This document shows positions 41,574 through 59,794 of a stretch of 64,000 bases of DNA, piece by piece. Under the pieces are notes generated by a model. That model was given only the letters and a program-made list of their open reading frames with translations, made no database searches and had not been told where the DNA came from. Where the stretch lies: NCBI GenBank assembly GCA_964460175.1, contig CAYWPN010000002.1, positions 127,145 through 191,144 on the forward strand. The letters run 5' to 3'. Within the stretch, counting starts at the first letter, position 1; every line of letters begins with the position of its first letter. The stretch comes from an uncultured Alistipes sp. Its GTDB lineage: Bacteria; Bacillota; Clostridia; Oscillospirales; Ruminococcaceae. The translations under genes were made by a program, and so were the position numbers.

Positions 41574-44500
41574 TTAATTCTTGTTGTCGTAAGTTACCCA
41601 CTGATAGTGTGCAGTGAGGGGAGTTTTGCCGTCATAAGGCTTGAGCCATTCGTCAACGCCAGTGCCGTTCCATGTATTCATCATAATTCTGCCAGGAGTG
41701 GACGGAATATTTTCTGTAGCCCTGTAGACTTCCTTTCCGTCAACATACCATGCAATGTAATCAGCCTGCCAGTCAAAGCCGTATGTATGGAAGCCTTCCG
41801 AAGCGTCGAAACCGAGGTCGTACATAAATTCATGTTCGCCTGTACCGTTTGTAAAGTAGTTGAACTGAACTTTTGTTGTGTCCTTGCCGAGAATTTCAAT
41901 ATCGATTTCGTCCCATGGATTATTTTCGGAAGGACCTGTATATGTGAAGAATGAGGAAACAACGCCGTCATTTTTGATAGGCTGCATGGAAGTCTCATAG
42001 TAGCCGTATCCATAATGGTCATTTGTTCTGTATTCAGCACCCGAATAATTATACTGTCCGCTGTTGTCCTTGTCTATTGTAAGACTGAGCATATCATTTT
42101 CGAGTGAAGTATTCTGTTTGTACCAGCCACAGTTAAAGAAACCGCCGTTAGTCCAGCCGTCCGAAGCAAAGAACAGTTCTGAACTGCCGTCCCTGAAATC
42201 CTCGACAGCAGTTGCATCTGCATTCATGGGAGTGCCATAGTCTTTAATACCGTTATTATCTGCAACAGTAACTGTTGTTGTAACAGCCGGAGTTGTAACG
42301 GGTTTAATTTCTGCTGTAGTCACTACAGGAACAGGCTGTTCAGGTTCTTCTTTTTTTCCTACAGGAAGACTGTCAACCATTTTTGCTTCAAGCTTCTGAA
42401 TTAAAAGAGCATCTGCGCCTGTTACTCCGTCGCCTACATTATAGCAGTCCGCATTAATCAATCCCTGTTCACTGAGACCGTATTTGTCCTCATTGCCAAT
42501 ATGCTGAATAATAGCAGTAGCGTCAGCAAGGTCAACTGTACCGTCGCAGTTTGCATCGCCATAGAGAATATCAGTAGTCGGAGGAGTTACAACCTCGCCT
42601 GTTCCGCCAGTAAGCGAAAGGAGATATGTAAGAGGAGAATTCCAGTAGATTGTGATTTCATTTGTGGAGTAGCTTTCTGAATTGTCAACCCAGCGTTTTG
42701 CCGGTGCAACACTCTTGCAGTAAGCCTTTGCTGCGCTGTCCTCTAAGTTCTGATTAACACCGCCTACGAGCATACCTTCCATAGCCTCTCCCACTGCCAT
42801 TGACGGACGGTGGTGCGGATTTTCAGGAGAAACAGTTCCGAAACCTGTCACGAAACTTGTTCCGAGCGGATTTGTTCCGAGAAGATAATCAAGCTGTGCG
42901 TTTGCTGCATTGAGATATTTCTCATCGCCAGTCTCATTGTAAGCAAGACCAAGAATTATACCTGCATTTGCAACAGTCATATTACTTCCCCAGTTGTACT
43001 TTGTAATCGCAGCACCATAAGGCATAACGTCTGATATACTTACAAAATCGTCAGCCTGTTTCTTTACAGCTGCGAGAGCCTTTGTGTAAATATCTGAATT
43101 TTTGTCAATATCTTTCATTGTAAGGACTGCAATGTTGCCGTAATCGCCTACTGTTGACCAGTCAAGACCTTTTGAAGCAGTTGATACGTTTGAAATATAT
43201 TTTGTATCACCTGTTGCACGGTAAAGCTGCAAAGCTGCCCAGTAGCGTTCATCTGTTGTAACATTGTCGCCGTACTCGCCTGTTACAACATCATCTGGAT
43301 TTGTGTATGTAACATTCGGATTTGCCTCTGCCCAAGCATAAGCCTTTATTGCAGCCTCAAGACAGGTATCAGCAAAACCAGCGTCAACATCTTTGTAGAT
43401 TTCGTAAGCAAGAGCCATGGAAGCTGCAAAATCAGCAGTAGCAGTTGTTGACTTCGGCATAACGATAAGCGGTTTTGTTTCCTTTTCGGGCATTACATAT
43501 CCAGGGAAAACATCGCATGAAACTTTATGGTACACACCGCCGTCGTTCTTGTCCTGCATTTTGAGCATCCATTCAAGTTCATAGCGTACTTCGTCGAGAA
43601 TATCAGCAGTACCGTTATTGCTTTCGGGAATGCCTATATTGTCGCTGTACATTGCCGGATTTGTCTGATATGCGTACATAAGGTCAGCAACAGCCTTTGC
43701 AGCAGCTACCACATATCTTCCGTAGTCGCCTGCATCGTGCCAGCCGCCGTTTACTTCTATTGTTTCGTCAGTACCGTAGATAGTAGCGACTGTATCGTGA
43801 CAGGCAACGTGACCGAATTTGTCATCAACTATTTCTGTACCGCAGCGCTGGAGATAAAGCATTCTTACACTTGAATCAAGAAGATTATTATAAACATCAT
43901 CACCGATTGTGAAAGTATAGGAATTTTCAAGTCCGCCGTATGAAATGTAGTATTTTCCGGGAGTAGTGACTTCCGAGAAATCGCCGATATAATTTGTTTC
44001 TTCGGCAGTAGTATTATTTTTTCCTTCGCTGAGAGTTCCTGTGTAAACAACCTCGCCGGTATCTGCATTAACAACAGCAAACTCATTTGTATTTACAGCA
44101 TCGGCATTTCTGATAACAGCCGTTTTCTTAGCGTTAGTCCTGTAGCCTACCTGATTTATATTGATGTCGTTTTCCTCACCGAGAACTGTACTATAGTCAA
44201 CATTGCTGTCATCGACGAGCTCGAGTGAAACGTTGTCAAGGTAGATTGTATGTTCGGGAAGTTCGCCGTCCTGTTTCTGCAAACCGCAGTTGAAACACAT
44301 CTTTGACATGATGTCTGTTTCCTCTTCCATTGTGAACTCATAGTCGATTGTCTGCGGTTCAGTTGTAACGTCAATACCCTTCCATGTATAAGCCTGATAT
44401 GTACCGCCGTTCTGCTGTATCATAGCTTCAACGTAACGTGGAGTTGAAGCGGAAATATCGAATTTCAGGCGGTAAACACCGTTCTGATAAAGCGGAATTA

Positions 44501-44762
44501 TGTCATAGAACATCTGTACAGCATAATTGAGAGTACCCTGTTTTGTGACTTTCAGTGCAAGTTTTCCGTCCTCTGTAGTGAGAGTACAAGCACCGCCGCT
44601 TTCTTTGTAAGTACCCCAGTCAGTCGTACCCGTATCGAATGTTGAGTTGCTGATTAAATTTTCAGCAGCCGATACAGCAAACGGAATTTCAGGTATAGCA
44701 GATGCCATAAGTATGCACGACGCAGCAGCAGCCATACAACGTCTTAAAGTATTTTTCTTCAT
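41574..44762 (-). CDS. Multimodular cellulosomal glycoside hydrolase: signal peptide - CBM4_9-like - Ig-like (CelD_N) - GH9 - dockerin - T/P linker - GH16 (lichenase-type)
   Basis: GH9: [31 protein letters not shown]. Dockerin: [51 protein letters not shown] (aa about 733-795). GH16: [12 protein letters not shown] (ExDxE), [20 protein letters not shown]. Confidence 0.92.
42378..42566 (-). other. Internal dockerin module of the GH9-GH16 enzyme
   Basis: About 80 percent identical at protein level, by eye, to the dockerin at 29457-29675. Long identical DNA runs include GTCCTCATT.CC.ATATGCTGAATAATAG.AGTAGCGTC.GCAAGGTCAAC. Confidence 0.85.
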
Positions 44763-52240: not shown

Positions 52241-52325
52241 ATAAACTCCCCCTTTTGTATATTTTACCATAAATTTCATACGCTGTAAAGATGACAAATG
52301 TCACTTTATGAATGACAAATGTCAC

Positions 52326-52356
52326 AAAAAAGAACCCCCGAAAAAACAGGAGTTCT
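52326..52356 (-). terminator. Terminator of the dockerin-repeat / radical SAM operon (bidirectional shape)
   Basis: Minus strand reads AGAACTCC-tgttttttc-GGGGGTTCT followed by TTTTTTG. It starts 20 nt after the rSAM stop. Confidence 0.75.
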
Positions 52357-52376
52357 TTTTTGTAAGGAGTATATGT

Positions 52377-53450
52377 TTAGAAGAGAATATCTTTAAAACA
52401 GAGCTGAGGTTCGTGCTTATCGAAGTCCCAGCTGTGATAAGCATCGCCGTGACATCTGCAATTCTCCGAGCAGTTACGGCATTTTTCGTTTTCATCACTG
52501 AGATTTTTGCGGAATATCTGGAAACCGTTCTCCCACACGTCTTTGAAACGGTCTGTGAGGATATTTCCCTGAATAAATTCGGGACGGCGTTCAATGTCGA
52601 GACAAGCCGTAATATCGCCGTTCGCCATGATACTTGCAATATATGTACCTGCCGTGCAGATGTAGTACCAGTCACGCACTTCACGTTCATATTCCATGCC
52701 GAGATAGTGACTGCAACCATATGTGACAGGCTCACCTTCAATACGCTTGTTGCGGATATAATCGAACATATAGCGGTAATCATCGGGAGTAAGAATAAGT
52801 TCAGGGTGCTGTTTTGCACGTCCGATTGGTTCAATATTGATAATACGCCATGAATCTATATCCATATCATCAAATATTTTATAAAGTTCGTCAAGCTGAC
52901 CGATATTCTGGTGAGTGACAACAGTTGTAACCTGAATATGTTTGAAACCGCCGGTTCTGATAAGGTTTTCAATGCCGTTAATACCACGTTTCCAGCCTCC
53001 CGGAGTACGTCTGAAAGCGTCATGGGTTTCTTCGAGGCCGTCAATACTTACTGAAATGGTAGCCATTCCCACACGTTTCAAATCCTTTGCGACTTCTTCG
53101 TCAATCAGTGTTGCATTGCTTGTCATTCCCCAGCTGAAACCAAGTTCGTGGGCGGAAGCCATAATATCAAAGAAATCCTTGCGCAGAAGAGGTTCACCGC
53201 CCGTAATGCAGAGCATTTTATCTGCCGTACCGAAATCGCCCTTTACTTCTGCAAGAAATTTTGCATACTGTTTCGGCGTTATCTCCTCCGACGACACATC
53301 ACCGCAGTTACTTCCGCAGTGCAGACAGCGTTCATTACAGCGCAAAGTAAGTTCAAGAAACAGGTGGCGGAGCTGAGGCTTTATCATAAGTCCCGCACGG
53401 TAAGCCTCAAGGGTTTTCATATTATCTTTTTTTACATTTACATCAAGCAT
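52377..53450 (-). CDS. Radical SAM / SPASM-domain enzyme (357 aa), no N-terminal RRE-sized domain
   Basis: CX3CX2C at LRCNERCLHC (C38/C42/C45). GGEPLLR, SVSIDG. Eight C-terminal Cys (GCSH, YICTAG, TACLD, KCRNCSENCRCHG, QLCF) are consistent with two auxiliary clusters. The ATG is 2 nt after the upstream stop, and its GAGGAG RBS lies in the upstream gene's last codons. Confidence 0.88.
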   Translation of the reverse strand: MLDVNVKKDNMKTLEAYRAGLMIKPQLRHLFLELTLRCNERCLHCGSNCGDVSSEEITPKQYAKFLAEVKGDFGTADKMLCITGGEPLLRKDFFDIMASAHELGFSWGMTSNATLIDEEVAKDLKRVGMATISVSIDGLEETHDAFRRTPGGWKRGINGIENLIRTGGFKHIQVTTVVTHQNIGQLDELYKIFDDMDIDSWRIINIEPIGRAKQHPELILTPDDYRYMFDYIRNKRIEGEPVTYGCSHYLGMEYEREVRDWYYICTAGTYIASIMANGDITACLDIERRPEFIQGNILTDRFKDVWENGFQIFRKNLSDENEKCRNCSENCRCHGDAYHSWDFDKHEPQLCFKDILF

Positions 53451-53452
53451 TT

Positions 53453-54232
53453 CTAATTCTCCTCATTATTTTCCTGAACAACGGTTGTCGTTGTCGTTGA
53501 CGAATTATAATCCGGCACTGTGCTTCTGAAGTCTTTAATCTCGCCGAGAATATATTTCTGGAGCATTACCATATCGGCAACATTGACTTCACCGTCGTCA
53601 TTGACATCTGCCCTGTAGTCGTAATCGCCGTACATTACAGCCTCAAAATACTTTTTGCGCATTTCAATCATGTCAAACACGTCAATCCTGTTGTCGCTGT
53701 CAAGGTCGCCCTTCCACGCAATCGGCGGACCATAGACAGGAACAGTAGGAACAGTCATAGTTTCAGTCGGCATAGTTGTCGTCCAGAACGGCGCAGGACC
53801 ATAAACAGCCGCAAAAGTAGTCTCAGTCTGTTTCGGATTATAGTCCTCAACAGATGTAGTAACCTGCGATACAGGCGGACCATAGACAGCCACAAAAGTA
53901 GTTTCAGTCTGCTTCGGATTATAGTCCTCAACAGATGTAGTGACCTGCGATACAGGCGGACCATAAACAGCCGCAAAAGTAGTCTCAGTCTGCTGCGGGT
54001 CGTAATCTGTGTCGACAGGGGCAGTTGTCCAGTAAGGTGCAGGACCATAGACGGGCTGAGGTATTGTAGTCTCCGCTATTGTCGTGACAGGCGAAAAACC
54101 GTAAACATTTCCGGACGCTTCACCGCTTGGACTGTAGTCAGCATTTGCAGTTTCTGCCGTTCCCGTCGGGAGAGTACCCATAGCAACTGCAAACATCGCC
54201 GCAGTCATCAGGGTTTTTACATTTTTTTTCAT
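53453..54232 (-). CDS. Secreted, cysteine-free VYGP-repeat protein with a C-terminal dockerin and a Thr-rich acidic tail (259 aa)
   Basis: Start at MKKNVKTLMTAAMFAVAMGTLPTGTAETANA (AAAGGAAG RBS). Six V-Y-G motifs. 27-aa tandem repeat (A/V)AVYGPPVSQVTTSVEDYNPKQTETTF. Dockerin GDLDSDNRIDVFDMIEM...ADVNDDGEVNVADMVML. Confidence 0.85.
   Translation of the reverse strand: MKKNVKTLMTAAMFAVAMGTLPTGTAETANADYSPSGEASGNVYGFSPVTTIAETTIPQPVYGPAPYWTTAPVDTDYDPQQTETTFAAVYGPPVSQVTTSVEDYNPKQTETTFVAVYGPPVSQVTTSVEDYNPKQTETTFAAVYGPAPFWTTTMPTETMTVPTVPVYGPPIAWKGDLDSDNRIDVFDMIEMRKKYFEAVMYGDYDYRADVNDDGEVNVADMVMLQKYILGEIKDFRSTVPDYNSSTTTTTVVQENNEEN
53537..53713 (-). other. Dockerin module (third, divergent sequence type)
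   Basis: DLDSDNRIDVFD and DVNDDGEVNVAD Ca-binding-loop-like segments separated by about 25 aa. Confidence 0.7.
53796..54010 (-). repeat. 81-bp in-frame tandem repeat, about 2.6 copies
   Basis: Units 53796-53876 and 53877-53957 differ at about 5 of 81 positions. A third partial unit from 53958 diverges after about 45 nt. Confidence 0.9.
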
Positions 54233-54273
54233 AGTATGCACTTCCTTTCAGAATTCTGTGATTAAATCACTCT

Positions 54274-54301
54274 ATAATATAAATGTCGGAAAATCTGTCA
54301 C
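54274..54301 (-). promoter_or_regulatory. Candidate promoter of the dockerin-repeat / rSAM operon
   Basis: Minus strand reads GTGACA - 16 nt - TATTAT, about 40 nt upstream of the start codon. No convincing terminator follows uvrA, so read-through is also possible. Confidence 0.4.
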
Positions 54302-54366: not shown

Positions 54367-57186
54367 TTACAGATATTTTTTCAGATATTTTCCGGTATAG
54401 GATTTCTCACATTCCGCAACCTCTTCGGGAGTACCTTGTGCAACAACAGTTCCTCCGCCGTCTCCGCCCTCTGGTCCTAAGTCAATAATATGGTCGGCTG
54501 ACTTTATCACATTCAGGTTATGTTCAATTACAAGAACAGTGTTCCCCTGATTTGTGAGTTCCTGCAACACGTCAATCAGCTTGTGAACGTCTGCCGTATG
54601 CAGTCCCGTCGTTGGTTCGTCGAGAATATATATAGTCTGTCCTGTTGAACGCTTTGAAAGTTCAGTCGAAAGTTTTACACGCTGTGCCTCGCCGCCTGAC
54701 AGAGTAGTTGCAGGCTGACCGATTTTGATATAACCCAGCCCGACTTCCTGCAAAGTTTTCAGTTTACGTGCAATTTTCGGCAGATGTTCAAAAAATTCCA
54801 CACCCTCATCAACAGTCATTTCAAGCACATCATAAATCGACTTGCCTTTGTAGTGTACTTCCAGTGTCTCACGGTTATAACGTTTACCCTTGCACACTTC
54901 ACAAGGAACATAAACATCAGGCAGAAAGTGCATTTCGATTTTAATAATGCCGTCACCCTCACAGGCTTCACACCGTCCGCCTTTGACATTAAAACTGAAA
55001 CGTCCGTTTGTGTAACCTCTTGCCTTTGCGTCGGGGGTTTTGGAAAATAAATCACGGATATCACTGAAAACTCCTGTATAAGTTGCAGGATTTGAACGTG
55101 GAGTTCGTCCTATCGGCGACTGGTCTATACAGATTACCTTGTCGAGATTTTCAAGTCCCTCAATCTTTTCAAAATCACCCGCAAAAGTTTTTGCACGGTT
55201 CAGTTTTGCGGCAAGATGTTTATATATAATCTCGTTGACAAGCGACGATTTACCGCTTCCCGAAACACCCGTCACGCAGATAAATTCTCCGAGTGGAATT
55301 TTAACATCAATATTTCTGAGATTGTGTTCCTTTGCGCCTTTTACTGTCAGGAACTTTCCATTGCCCTGCCGTCTGCTTACGGGTACAGGGATTTTTTTCT
55401 TACCGCTGAGATATTGTCCTGTGATGGATTTTCTGCACTTCAGGAGTTTGTCAACAGTACCCGAAAAAACAACTTCACCGCCGTTCACGCCTGCTCCCGG
55501 ACCTATATCGACGATATAATCAGCCGCAAGCATCGTATCATCGTCATGCTCGACGACAATCAGCGTATTGCCCAAATCCCTGAGACGTTTGAGAGTAGCA
55601 ATAAGCTTGTCGTTGTCACGCTGGTGCAGACCAATGCTTGGCTCATCGAGAATATACAGCACGCCCACAAGCGACGAGCCAATCTGTGTGGCAAGACGTA
55701 TTCTCTGACTTTCCCCGCCCGAAAGAGTACCCGAAGAACGTGAGAGGGTGAGATATTCAAGTCCAACACTGCTGAGAAAGCCGAGACGGTCTTTGATTTC
55801 CTTGATAATCCGTTCACCTATGAACTTTTCGTGTTCGGACAGTTCAAGATTATTGAAAAACTCAAGTTCGTCACGCACAGACATATCAGTCAGTTCACTG
55901 ATATTCTTTCCGCCTACTGTTACTGCAAGATACTCAGGTTTAAGACGTTTTCCCTTGCATTCCGGACAACTTGTTTCAGTCATGCAGTCCTCAATTGCAG
56001 CTTTGGAATAGTCACTTCCGCTTTCACGGTAACGTCTTTCGAGGTTGTGAATAACTCCCTCAAACGTAGTCCTGTACTTCCCACCGCCTAAACTTTCGGG
56101 ACGGCGCATTTCAAGTTTTTCTTCACCTGTACCGTACAGGAAAATATCAAGCTGTTCCTTTGTGAGTTCCCTGACAGGCACATCAAGCGGAATATTGTAT
56201 TTCTTTGAAATCGCCTTATAGTACATCATTGCAATAGACGTTTCGTCAAGACTATTCCAGCCGTGAGCAGTTATAGCACCGTCAAGAATTGACAAATCTC
56301 TGTTCGGAACAATTGTTTTTGCCTCAATCTGCCTGAACATTCCGAGACCCGTACACTTCGGACAAGCTCCCATAGGATTGTTAAAAGAAAATACAACCGG
56401 TTCAAGTTCGCCGATACTTATATTATGTTCAGGACAGGCGAAATTCTGCGAAAACATCATCTCTTCACCGCCGATGACATCCACAATTGCAAGTCCGTTC
56501 GTAAGTTTGAATACAGTTTCGAGACTGTCAGTCAGACGTGTTTCAATCCCTTCTTTCACGATAAGCCTGTCAACAATTATTTCGATGTCATGCTTTTTAT
56601 TCTTGTCAAGCTTTATCTCTTCTGTGAGTTCATAGTCTATGCCGTCAATCCTTGCACGGACAAATCCCGATTTTCTTGCGTTTTCAAGTTCTTTTGCATA
56701 CTGTCCTTTACGTCTGCGTACAATAGGAGCAAGCAGTCTGATTTTAGTCCTTTCGGGGAGCGACATAATTTTGTCAACCATCTGGTCGATAGTCTGCTGA
56801 GAAATCTCACGTCCGCAGACCGGACAGTGCGGTATACCTATTCTTGCGTAAAGCAGACGGAGATAGTCATATATTTCAGTAACCGTGCCGACTGTTGAAC
56901 GTGGATTTTTGGAAGTTGTTTTCTGGTCGATTGAAATTGCGGGTGAAAGTCCCTCAATGCTGTCCACGTCGGGCTTTTCCATCTGTCCGAGAAACATACG
57001 TGCATACGACGAAAGACTTTCCACGTAACGCCTCTGACCGTCCGCATAGATAGTATCGAACGCAAGCGATGATTTTCCCGAACCCGACAAGCCCGTCATG
57101 ACAATAAGCTTGTCTCTCGGAAGTTCAACATCGATATTCTTTAAATTATTTACCCTTGCGCCCCTGATAATTATTTTATCCGTCAT
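54367..57186 (-). CDS. uvrA: Excinuclease ABC subunit A
   Basis: 939 aa. Two ABC modules ([18 protein letters not shown]; [16 protein letters not shown]) and zinc-finger Cys pairs. Confidence 0.97.
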
Positions 57187-57192
57187 TTCAGA

Positions 57193-57735
57193 TTAACCTC
57201 GCTTTATAATATCTCTTACTTCCATAAGGCAGAAACCAAGAAGATTTTCGCCGTCCCAGAGATTAGGATTTTCGCAGTAAGATTTCATGCCAATTCCCCA
57301 TATTTTATCATACGGGCTTGCCTCGACAAGTACTCTGCTGTTTGTATTAAGTATAAATTCTTTAAGTTCCTCATTCTGCGAAAACTTTGCAACATTGCCC
57401 TTTATGACAATATCAGTCTTGTGCTTATCCCATATTTTTTCGTCAAACCCCGATATTTTCCGTCCCAGCGACTTGAATTCATTCGGGTGTGAAGCTTTCA
57501 TAATTTCACTGTATATTTTTTTGTCACCGAAAAGAAGTGCTTTCTGCGACATCATGTACTGTTCGGCCGTAGAGTACTCCACACCGTCCACAGTGAAACG
57601 GCAGTCAAACCACTGACTGAAACAGCTTTTTGTAATACTTCCGTCTGCGGACGGTCTGTGACCCCAGAAAAATATATATTTCATGCGTTCACCGTTATTA
57701 AATCTTTTTACTATTATATCCCTCGTGTAGTTCAT
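57193..57735 (-). CDS. NADAR (YbiA/DUF1768) family protein
   Basis: [27 protein letters not shown] and [14 protein letters not shown] motifs. Sits 2 nt after the uvrB stop and 6 nt before the uvrA start. Confidence 0.88.
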
Positions 57736-57737
57736 AA

Positions 57738-59699
57738 TTATTCCCCTTTCAGTTCGTTAATCTTGTCACGCAGATAAGCAGCGTGTTCAAATTCCAGCAT
57801 TTTCGCCGCATTTTTCATCTCAACAGTAAGTCTGTCGATAAGCTGTTGTCTTTCAGCAGCGGTCATCTTCTTCTTACTTGTTTTCGTCTCGACTTTATTT
57901 CTTGATGTGATTTCAAGCACATTGCGGACTTCCTTTATGATAGTTTTCGGGACTATGCCATGTTCCTCATTGAATTTAATCTGCAAACTCCGACGGCGTT
58001 CAGTCTCAATAATGGCACGTTCCATTGAACCCGTAACGCTGTCAGCGTACATGATAACCTGTCCGTTTGCATTACGTGCGGCACGTCCTATCGTCTGAAT
58101 GAGAGAAGTCTCACTTCTGAGGAAACCCTCTTTGTCAGCATCGAGAATAGCAATAAGACTGACTTCCGGAATGTCAAGTCCTTCACGGAGCAGGTTAATT
58201 CCCACAAGAACATCAAACACACCATTCCGCAAGTCCCTGATAATCTCCATACGTTCAATTGTATCAATATCATGGTGCAGATAGCGGATTTTTATTCCCA
58301 TTTCGTCATAATAAGCAGTCAAATCCTCCGCCATTTTCTTTGTCAGAGTAGTAATAAGCACACGTTCTTTTCTGTCAATTCTTTTATTTATTTCAGAATA
58401 GAGGTCATCAATCTGATTTGCTGTGGGCTTGACGATTACTTCAGGGTCAACCAGTCCGGTCGGGCGGATAAGCTGTTCAATGATTATATCGGTCTTTTCA
58501 CGCTCAATCTGCCCCGGAGTTGCACTTACATAAATTGCCTGATTTATCCTCTCATTAAACTCATCAAAATTCAGTGGTCTGTTGTCATAAGCACTAGGCA
58601 GTCTGAAACCATAATTAATAAGGTTATCTTTTCTTGCCTTATCGCCGGCATACATTCCACGCACCTGCGGTAAAGTAACATGACTTTCGTCAACAATAAG
58701 CAGAAAATCTTTCGGGAAATGGTCGAAAAGTGTAAGAGGACTGCTCCCTGCGGGTCTTCCCGAAAGCACACGGGAATAATTTTCAACGCCGCTGCAATAG
58801 CCTACTTCACGTATCATCTCCATGTCATAGTGAACACGCTCCTTGATACGCTGTGCTTCGATAAATTTGTTATTCTGCTCAAAATAGCTGATACGTTCTG
58901 CAAGTTCCCTGTCGAGTTCTTTCATTGCAGCTTCAATTTTGTCATCGCTTACTATATAATGTGATGCAGGGAAAATAGCCGTATGTGAAACAGTCGCCTT
59001 TACTTCGCCAGTAACCGCATTTATTTCGGAAATCCTGTCTATTTCGTCGCCGAAATATTCAACTCTTATAGCCGTTTCGTTGGACATGGCAGGGAAAATC
59101 TCCACAACGTCGCCACGCACACGGAATTTATTGCGCTCGAATGCAATATCGTTTCTCTCATAGCGGATTTTTATGAGTTCAGCAATAAGCTGTTCCCTTG
59201 ATTTTTCCATTCCCTGACGGATAGAAACAACATTTGAACGGTATTCCTCAGGACTTCCCAGAGAATAAATGCACGATACACTTGATACGATTATAACGTC
59301 CCTGCGCTCCGCAAGTGCAGTGGTTGCGGAATGACGGAGTTTGTCTATTTCGTCATTTATCGCCGAAACTTTCTCAATATAGCTATCCGTACTTGCAATA
59401 TACGCTTCGGGCTGATAGTAGTCATAGTACGAAACGAAGTACTCGACAGCATTTTCAGGGAAAAATTCCTTGAACTCAGCACATAACTGTGATGCAAGTA
59501 CTTTATTGTGTGCGAGTACAAGAGTTGGCTTGTTTACCTGTGCAATGACATTCGCCATAGTAAAAGTCTTTCCTGAACCCGTCACGCCAAGAAGTATCTG
59601 TTCTTTTTTTCCCGATTTCAAGCCGTCCACGAGTTTTTCTATTGCTTGTGGCTGGTCACCTGCGGGTGCGTATTCGGAATGAAGTCTGAAACGTTCCAT
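57738..59699 (-). CDS. uvrB: Excinuclease ABC subunit B
   Basis: Start at [28 protein letters not shown] Walker A, DESH box, and C-terminal UVR domain ([15 protein letters not shown]). Confidence 0.97.
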
Positions 59700-59729
59700 A
59701 AAAATCACGCCTTTCGATAGTATACTTCT

Positions 59730-59758
59730 ATTATACCACACTGCAATACAAAAATAAA
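59730..59758 (-). promoter_or_regulatory. Candidate extended -10 promoter for uvrB
   Basis: Minus strand reads TTTATT - 17 nt - TGgTATAAT. The -35 is weak. Confidence 0.35.
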
Positions 59759-59794
59759 GAGGGAGAACATATTTTCTTATTTTAATCAAATAAA

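Follow-up and report, generated by a model that had tools for sequence, protein, structure and literature searches.

A radical SAM/SPASM enzyme coupled to a secreted XYGPP-repeat dockerin protein: a candidate dockerin-anchored variant of the rSAM/lipoprotein system

The two-gene unit and its products

The DNA considered here, called the window throughout, is a stretch of 64,000 nucleotides (positions 127,145 to 191,144 of contig CAYWPN010000002.1, assembly GCA_964460175.1) from an uncultured Alistipes sp. that GTDB places in the Ruminococcaceae. Its open reading frames (ORFs) include a unit of two genes on the minus strand, the first of which (gene 1, 53453-54232) encodes a dockerin protein with repeated X-Y-G-P-P motifs that is predicted to be secreted, and predicted to be the substrate of the product of the second (gene 2, 52377-53450), a radical SAM (rSAM)/SPASM enzyme. 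Comparison with relatives indicates that the pairing of such an enzyme with such a motif recurs across bacteria and archaea, and that the motif is very probably a site of protein modification.

The ORF of gene 1 reaches as far as a GTG at 54241 (53453-54241), with the likely true start being the ATG at 54232, which gives a protein of 259 aa that begins MKKNVK. Its N-terminus, MKKNVKTLMTAAMFAVAMGTLPTGTAETANA|D, is a Sec-type signal as judged by eye, and this signal peptide covers residues 1-31 (54140-54232, minus strand), running from MKKNVKTLMTAAMFAVAMG to the probable cleavage site ANA|D, with its 17 N-terminal residues being the family-invariant part. What follows is a Thr/Pro-rich repeat region (53717-54106, minus strand) with six V-Y-G motifs, at residues 44, 62, 90, 117, 144 and 167 and so spaced 18-28 aa apart, which are the predicted modification sites. 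A seventh YG, in the form MYGD, lies inside the dockerin. When the mature protein was shuffled 100,000 times none of the shuffled versions reached the observed 7 YG, 6 VYG or 5 YGP (p<1e-5). Two of the repeats are identical AVYGPPVSQVTTSVEDYNPKQTETTF units, which evidently stem from a recent 81-bp tandem duplication (53796-53998, minus strand, 2.5 copies, 92% matches, score 364).

The repeat region is followed by a type I dockerin domain (53546-53713, minus strand; PF00404, ORF residues 177-232) that is the predicted cohesin-binding anchor, the match to Dockerin_1 having an E-value of 1.8e-10 and 41.3 bits against a gathering cut-off of 22.9. The C-terminal tail is Thr-rich and acidic, and the whole protein has no Cys at all. 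Against TIGR04134, the family of putative lipoproteins associated with radical SAM enzymes, gene 1 gave no match even at E-values up to 10 (the cut-off being 39.8 bits), and neither the window protein nor the short lipoproteins that take its place in some relatives have a partner-family name in NCBIfam.

Gene 2 encodes a protein of 357 aa on the minus strand that is assigned to the TIGR04133 superfamily from hidden Markov model (HMM) matches, an AlphaFold2 model (pLDDT 92.5) and a Foldseek search of that model. Pfam matches are Radical_SAM at residues 33-191 and SPASM at 265-327. The cluster motif CX3CX2C is formed by C38, C42 and C45 and is followed by C49 (53316-53339), whilst the region of the SPASM auxiliary clusters (52398-52715) holds the conserved Cys 246, 265, 283, 324, 327, 333 and 351; of the eight Cys in the C-terminal half seven are family-conserved, the exception being C331. 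Only residues 1-37 precede the rSAM core, and because a single helix (residues 4-23) is all that stands before the barrel in the model, the enzyme is without an RRE leader-recognition domain. The best full-length structural match is anSMEcpe (TM 0.73/0.73), with SuiB, SkfB, CteB and EpeE (TM ~0.5) also found, and sequence matches to the PDB are weak. C49 lies four residues past the CX3CX2C motif (HCGSxC) and is invariant in 40 of 40 aligned family members; the splicease PlpX has an Ala at the aligned position (HCGSRAG).

Gene 2 starts 2 nt past the stop of gene 1, and its ribosome-binding site, GAGGAG (53459-53464, minus strand), falls within the end of the gene 1 coding sequence, preceding the ATG by 8 nt. 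Upstream of gene 1 there is a candidate sigma-70-like promoter (54301-54274), GTGACA and TATTAT with a 16-nt spacer, which with 10 of 12 consensus matches is the best of the region on the minus strand and is a candidate by consensus match only. The unit is closed by an intrinsic terminator-like hairpin (52365-52322) with a 19-pair stem and a folding energy of -25.5 kcal/mol (z = -7.05), the sole terminator-like match in the region, in which the 3' arm is U-rich and no separate T tract follows the stem. An earlier reading of the sequence alone, made without database searches, had described a self-contained minus-strand unit, and all the features it gave are present: the candidate promoter at 54274-54301, the strong terminator (though with the reservation about the T tract), the coupling of the genes, the signal peptide, spaced VYG motifs, dockerin, acidic tail and lack of Cys in gene 1, and in gene 2 the CX3CX2C motif, the eight C-terminal Cys and the lack of room for an RRE.

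Other long ORFs overlap the unit in alternative frames or antisense (52308-52853 on the plus strand, 52322-52834 and 53755-54048 on the minus strand), these are unsupported and are probably by-products of the coding sequence in the real frames. Further along the window lie uvrA (54367-57186), a gene with a NADAR domain (57193-57735, minus strand) and uvrB (57738-59789). The window also holds a multidomain glycoside hydrolase (41574-44762, minus strand; CBM4_9, CelD_N, GH9 and GH16), which is in keeping with a cellulolytic Ruminococcus and for which the domain search reported no dockerin at E<=1e-5.

Conservation of the pair and of the X-Y-G motif

Gene 2 has thousands of relatives, the best 120 of which are at least 69% identical to it, with the named ones belonging to Ruminococcus or Oscillospiraceae. 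Taking one genome per species gave a close set of 80 loci with rSAM proteins 67-91% identical. In 78 of these a partner gene lies directly upstream on the same strand, and its product starts with MKKTxKTALTAAxFAAA and carries 1-7 [VL]YGPP motifs. In most of the loci the rSAM gene begins about -17 to +30 nt from the partner stop, with wider gaps of 48-69 nt in nine of the 78 and of 161 nt in one (L029). Flanking synteny is lost over the same set, UvrA being found in 14 of the 80 loci and no other neighbour from the window in more than six. As the partner is kept in 78 loci while the flanks change, the pair can be said to travel as a unit. The two exceptions are L028 (1159-1332), in which the partner keeps the N-terminus MKKTLHTLLTSAAFAAA but is truncated to 57 aa and has no YG, and L068, which has no recognisable partner.

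The motif itself was described from 75 partners of the close set, of which 71 have at least two YG[PA] motifs (range 1-7). A logo built from their 315 YG sites reads P-Q-P-[VL]-Y-G-P-P-x-x-F, in which Y and G are invariant by construction, as the sites were picked on YG. Around them Pro is found in 82% of sites at +2 and 73% at +3, V in 54% and L in 20% at -1, and F in 36% at +6.

The other conserved part of the partners is the signal peptide. Pairwise identity between partners is 0.68 over residues 1-17 against 0.24 elsewhere, and 11 of these 17 columns reach at least 2.8 bits (at least 67% one residue), nine of them being above 3.4 bits. In a control made with the GHL10-like and PBP-like lipoproteins that neighbour the unit in the window, with three orthologues each, signal peptides diverge freely at 60-80% overall identity. 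Other clades have conserved N-terminal motifs of their own, such as K+xYRF... and ILRxIYR.

More distant relatives widen this picture. In a distant set of 80 metagenome loci, whose enzymes are 34-56% identical to an intermediate relative, an adjacent ORF on the same strand with YG.{0,2}P was found in 58 loci, compared with 4.4% of other ORFs. The partners in this set are of many kinds, with repeat lipoproteins, dockerin proteins, bitopic membrane proteins, zinc-ribbon proteins and beta-sandwich lipoproteins with MYGPGPD all found. In Alkaliphilus (L083) the partner is a lipoprotein with CGMYGPPP and a beta-sandwich domain, in a deltaproteobacterial metagenome-assembled genome (MAG) it is a lipoprotein encoded downstream of the enzyme with 11 X-Y-G sites, among them four VLYGPMPVDVQD units, and in Methanocella it is a membrane protein with KYGPPPTPTP and KYGAPVPP. 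Chance adjacency is ruled out as an explanation by the 78 of 80 close loci, the motif neighbours of the distant enzymes and the lost flanking synteny. The sequence-only reading had proposed a survey of neighbourhoods, and the outcome agrees with its expectation in that close and distant homologues adjoin signal-peptide proteins with YG motifs, not sulfatases, Cys-rich peptides or cofactor genes.

In Clostridium swellfunianum the partner consists of two tandem mini-lipoproteins, ...CRGERENKYGPPVSKYGPPTSYEKKIN and ...CIGGKYGPPPTPKYGPPPVTNQ..., with the motif stretches ...KYGPPVSKYGPPTS... and ...KYGPPPTPKYGPPP.... These are paralogues of 54 and 57 aa with two KYGPP each, encoded upstream of the rSAM (L081:2638-2999), and their predicted mature products are lipopeptides of ~25-30 residues, so that this would be the easiest system in which to work on the chemistry. 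In many lipoprotein partners (L075, L097, L104, L106, L114, L119 and L122) the first motif comes straight after the lipobox Cys, as C-V-Y-G-P-P, which would put the presumed modified residue two residues from the lipidated N-terminus. A further group of partners (L116-L118, L125 and L126) has no signal peptide; these are cytoplasmic proteins with a double zinc ribbon, a single C[IV]YGPPP sitting between its two halves, and export is thus not obligatory for the system.

There are also proteins in which enzyme and motif are fused. Two of these (P0134 and P0136) join an rSAM/SPASM enzyme to a C-terminal zinc ribbon with LYGPPP or IYGPPE, and in a third (P0128) the rSAM has an N-terminal extension with three motifs of the VYGxxTP/VYGTP type. 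Across all partners the residue before YG varies (V, L, K, M, E, D, A and I), and outside the window clade the motif takes forms such as KYGPPVSK, MYGPGPD and LYGPMPVD. The sole universal feature of the partners is X-Y-G, mostly with a Pro within three residues.

The means by which the partner is held at the cell varies. Among the 75 clade partners a dockerin is found in 60, a lipobox in 21, both in seven and neither in one; a lipobox is present in 14 of the 15 partners that have no dockerin, so that the two anchors are close to mutually exclusive. In a neighbour-joining tree of 156 enzymes, rooted on PlpX and made without support values, the window enzyme falls in a clade with dockerin partners only, its successive sisters being mixed dockerin/lipobox, then lipoprotein-only, then zinc-ribbon and other types. 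This order suggests that in ruminococci that produce cellulosomes a dockerin has taken the place of an ancestral lipid anchor. The dockerin, which the sequence-only reading had taken as a central feature, is better seen as a lineage-specific anchor, absent from 15 of the 75 clade partners and from deeper relatives that are lipoproteins. Within the literature searched, the use of X-Y-G-(P)-P as a common denominator of six partner architectures appears to be new, as do the leader-like conservation of the signal peptide and the switch from lipid to dockerin anchor.

Family placement and comparison with known systems

The best NCBIfam family of gene 2 is TIGR04133, to which residues 11-351 align over profile positions 7-344 of 350 with 272.7 bits, below the cut-off of 425 bits. 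The next families are AhbD (140 bits), MftC (136) and NirJ2 (133), and the PlpX-type family TIGR04103 is matched with 114.1 bits for a cut-off of 725. On these scores the window enzyme is a relative within the TIGR04133 superfamily and not an equivalog. TIGR04133 ('rSAM_w_lipo') and TIGR04134 ('radical SAM-associated putative lipoprotein') are hypothetical equivalogs in NCBIfam that make up an 'rSAM/lipoprotein system', and relatives of gene 2 carry the JGI name 'radical SAM enzyme (rSAM/lipoprotein system)'. In all, 338 clusters (50% identity, E<=1e-30) in bacteria and archaea came out of an exhaustive search, and TIGR04133 was the top match for all ten of the representatives that were sampled. 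The wider family includes tandem double rSAM/SPASM fusions of 730-850 aa (P0199, P0204, P0213 and P0241) and enzymes with a C-terminal extension of ~200 aa that has an H-x-H...S-x-x-D pattern (P0138, P0140-P0148, P0151, P0161 and P0193); a reading of these extensions as JAB/MPN domains was dropped, as Pfam gives no match.

The link to the catalogued system is made by two loci (L149 and L152) whose rSAM proteins exceed the TIGR04133 cut-off, with 462 and 441 bits, and whose partners are lipoproteins with MYGPGPD directly after the lipobox. The Alkaliphilus partner exceeds the cut-off of TIGR04134 with 52.3 bits, and it is only beta-sandwich lipoprotein partners that match this family. The window unit thus shares with the catalogued system the compact rSAM and SPASM layout without an RRE and the adjoining signal-peptide protein on the same strand with a Y-G-P motif, which in bona fide members sits just after the lipobox. 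It differs in that its enzyme is below the cut-off and in that its partner has no match to TIGR04134, no lipobox and no beta-sandwich domain, and instead has six copies of the motif, a dockerin and a clade-specific N-terminus. That the Y-G-P motif is a defining trait of the TIGR04133/TIGR04134 system is what we infer from the loci, and the literature searched yielded no mention of such a trait. The sequence-only reading knew of no described system with this architecture, a view that does not survive the HMM placement: the enzyme falls in the TIGR04133 superfamily, the partner class is catalogued as TIGR04134, and the window unit is a dockerin-anchored variant of this system, which has stood in the catalogues for years, though as a hypothetical one. 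In the literature searched nothing was found on TIGR04133 or on YGPP together with radical SAM, and for TIGR04134 there was one review of the type IX secretion system, which is unrelated.

For an rSAM/SPASM enzyme that works on repeated X-Y-G sites in which X varies, the nearest precedent in mechanism is offered, by analogy, by the splicease family (PlpX/PlpY, RhaX, RcsX and RasX). These rSAM/SPASM enzymes target XYG sites, of which there can be several in one precursor, and they also act in proteins (PMC11414181, PMC9811515, PMC11626197). They cut out a tyramine equivalent, and what stays behind is an alpha-keto-beta-amino amide, a warhead that inhibits proteases (PMC9811515, PMC11626197); in binary spliceases, which lack an RRE, a helix of the leader is used in its stead (PMC11414181). 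The reaction is marked by a loss of C8H9NO (135.06 Da). The splice tags of PlpA, PIRPLYGLPI and AVAAMYGVVFP, have Pro near the YG (PMC10533398, supplementary information). Scott et al. (2022) are reported to have examined all rSAM-SPASM proteins for neighbours rich in YG, which gave 939 predicted splicease systems with 27 of them validated (PMC10849128, PMC10533398), and the family related to TIGR04133 may already be listed among the 939.

The window enzyme resembles the spliceases in being an rSAM/SPASM protein with almost no N-terminal extension, and its partner resembles their precursors in having multiple X-Y-G sites in which X varies. PlpX, with its sequence taken from the PlpA3 genomic locus, aligns with gene 2 end to end at 26% identity (E 5e-32), and has TIGR04133 as the fifth of its own NCBIfam matches, after TIGR04103, TIGR03913, AhbD and TIGR04053. 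PlpX and the window enzyme therefore appear to share a common neighbourhood of compact SPASM enzymes without being sisters. There are clear differences. The window enzyme is outside the PlpX family, the unit has no PCAT exporter, and neither a Nif11/NHLP leader domain nor a small ORF for a Y-protein activator is found in it. A signal peptide, of the Sec or lipoprotein kind, is the proposed analogue of the leader, and the product would stay attached to the cell. Nothing in the literature searched joins the tyramine or ketoamide chemistry of radical SAM enzymes with a signal peptide or a lipoprotein.

Other known systems are instructive in part. The sulfatase-maturing enzyme anSME acts in the cytoplasm on a short motif of an unfolded protein, ahead of export, and it shares with gene 2 the rSAM/SPASM make-up and the lack of an RRE; it is also the best full-length structural match noted above. 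It is, however, only ~20% identical to gene 2 and its genes are paired with sulfatases, of which none was seen near the window unit. Maturation of this sulfatase type was rejected, as gene 1 has neither the C/S-x-P-x-R motif nor any Cys. The analogy that may hold is one of working order, with the window system, like anSME or a binary splicease, modifying a short protein motif before export. MftC, the third-best NCBIfam match, acts on a Val-Tyr dipeptide, yet it requires MftB, an RRE protein, and a Tyr at the C-terminus, whereas in the window protein the Tyr is internal and followed by Gly-Pro-Pro and MftB is absent; chemistry of the MftC type was thus rejected on substrate features.

Candidate mechanism, rival chemistries and meaning

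It is probable, though held with some reserve, that the two genes form one maturation unit that is a dockerin-anchored variant of the rSAM/lipoprotein system. In the scheme proposed, the rSAM/SPASM enzyme would work on the unfolded pre-protein ahead of Sec export, because an Fe-S enzyme of this kind is presumably cytoplasmic. Since the enzyme has no RRE, the signal peptide may take the part of a leader, with the enzyme docking on the N-terminus MKKTxKTALTAAxFAAA. A Tyr-centred radical reaction would then take place at every X-Y-G-P-P motif, of which the window protein has six, after which the modified, disordered, Thr/Pro-rich chain would be exported and cut at ANA|D. The dockerin would keep the chain at the cell surface, as a lipid anchor would do in the deeper relatives. 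Any such chemistry must be local to X-Y-G-(P)-P, because partners with a single motif exist and Y-G alone is universal.

As to what this chemistry may be, the reaction tentatively favoured, by analogy and as one possibility among several, is that a tyramine equivalent is cut out at XYG in the manner of a splicease, with a change of about -135.07 Da per site. Splicing would leave alpha-keto-beta-amino amide warheads in the chain, and so could produce a multi-site protease inhibitor tethered to the cellulosome. It is speculative, but a surface-tethered array of ketoamides would suit the habitat. Cellulosomes are known to include serpins that bear dockerins. The fullest version of this idea is a protein-sized 'spliceotide' in which tyramine is cut from six VYG sites with the signal peptide as leader, giving a cellulosome-docked ketoamide array that would shield the fibre-degrading machinery from proteases; this version is doubtful. 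If true, the TIGR04133 superfamily, with its 338 clusters, would be one of surface-tethered ribosomal ketoamide inhibitors with interchangeable anchors (lipid, dockerin or transmembrane helix).

A number of points weigh against this account. The PlpX-type family TIGR04103 (114 bits) is no closer to the enzyme than AhbD, MftC or NirJ2 (140, 136 and 133 bits), and for this reason the sequence does not single out splicing. The Pro at +2 and +3 (82% and 73%) is no known requirement of spliceases and could point to a chemistry that involves Pro. A protease and an exporter are missing from the locus, unlike in many clusters for RiPPs (peptides made on ribosomes and modified after translation). Of the distant relatives about 20 of 80 have no YG partner, some of them being on truncated contigs and some perhaps belonging to different subfamilies. 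The contrast between the N-terminus and the rest of the partner is inflated because the disordered region evolves quickly, the control for the signal peptide, with its three orthologues per lipoprotein, is small since synteny is poor, and a neighbour-joining tree without support values is indicative only.

The main rival to splicing is a crosslink of Tyr within the motif, in which a small C-C or C-O ring would form within Y-G-P(-P) with a loss of 2 Da per site, for example a three-residue cyclophane of the triceptide type from the Tyr ring to the beta-carbon of the Pro at +2. A linker crosslinked in this way would be rigid and protease-proof, and a small ring could pass through Sec export. This is the nearest surviving form of what the sequence-only reading had put forward, which was crosslinks from Tyr to Trp or Phe. 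Such links between repeats were rejected: the aromatic residue at +5/+6 is kept in the window clade only (F in 36% of sites at +6), Trp and Phe partners are not conserved, and partners with a single motif exclude a link from one repeat to another. For a ring within the motif, Y-G-P formally matches the aromatic-X-X pattern of three-residue cyclophane RiPPs, whose maturases also are rSAM/SPASM enzymes that act on repeated motifs in one precursor, the Pro is well kept at both +2 and +3, and SuiB, SkfB and CteB, which lie near gene 2 in structure, are SPASM enzymes that form crosslinks. It is nevertheless unlikely, given that the Gly at +1 is invariant in bacteria and archaea while the middle residue is free in known cyclophane motifs, that in other clades V, I, T, A, M or G stands at +2 (YGVP, YGIP, YGTP, YGAP, YGPM, YGPG), and that the triceptide-maturase family is not among the top 25 NCBIfam matches of gene 2, which has no family-level match of this kind. 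Triceptide systems in addition employ leader peptides and RREs.

Less likely still is some other local change to the motif, be it epimerisation of the YydG/EpeE or PoyD type, beta-hydroxylation or a further alteration of Tyr, Gly or Pro, that would tune protease resistance or adhesion with no rearrangement of the backbone. Epimerases of the rSAM class with SPASM or twitch domains exist, EpeE is among the structural matches of the gene 2 model, and the partner is a disordered and surface-exposed chain in a protease-rich habitat. Gene 2 has no specific sequence affinity to epimerase families, however, and a change of this kind would leave the strict requirement for Y-G unexplained. Thioether, sactipeptide and ranthipeptide chemistries were rejected, given that partners of the dockerin type have no Cys and those of the lipoprotein type mostly have only that of the lipobox, and the exclusion of thioethers in the sequence-only reading holds in so far as they are unlikely. 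That the partner is no substrate at all, with its VYGPP region an ordinary linker of the PT type and its adjacency a matter of co-regulation or some other link, is very improbable: cellulosomal proteins do often have Thr/Pro-rich linkers and the substrate relationship is itself deduced, but the adjacency outlasts the complete turnover of neighbours and of partner architecture across phyla, and even a switch in the order of the two genes, some proteins carry motif and enzyme fused together, and the YG counts are far above what composition would give.

Whatever the chemistry, the two genes are judged to be a real, conserved maturation pair. A large catalogued rSAM family, TIGR04133 and its relatives, is now tied to a concrete target motif, X-Y-G-(P)-P, in hosts that include gut and rumen Firmicutes, a deltaproteobacterial MAG and a methanogen. 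As the anchor has been swapped from lipid to dockerin while motif and enzyme were kept, the products seem to be meant for the cell surface. If the splicing of tyramine does occur, this would be a natural example of a beta-amino acid or ketoamide being placed in a structural protein that is secreted, and the product would make up a new class among cellulosome components; if the chemistry is another, it would be a new protein modification by a radical SAM enzyme. Either would allow pairs now labelled 'hypothetical' to be annotated in many rumen and gut genomes.

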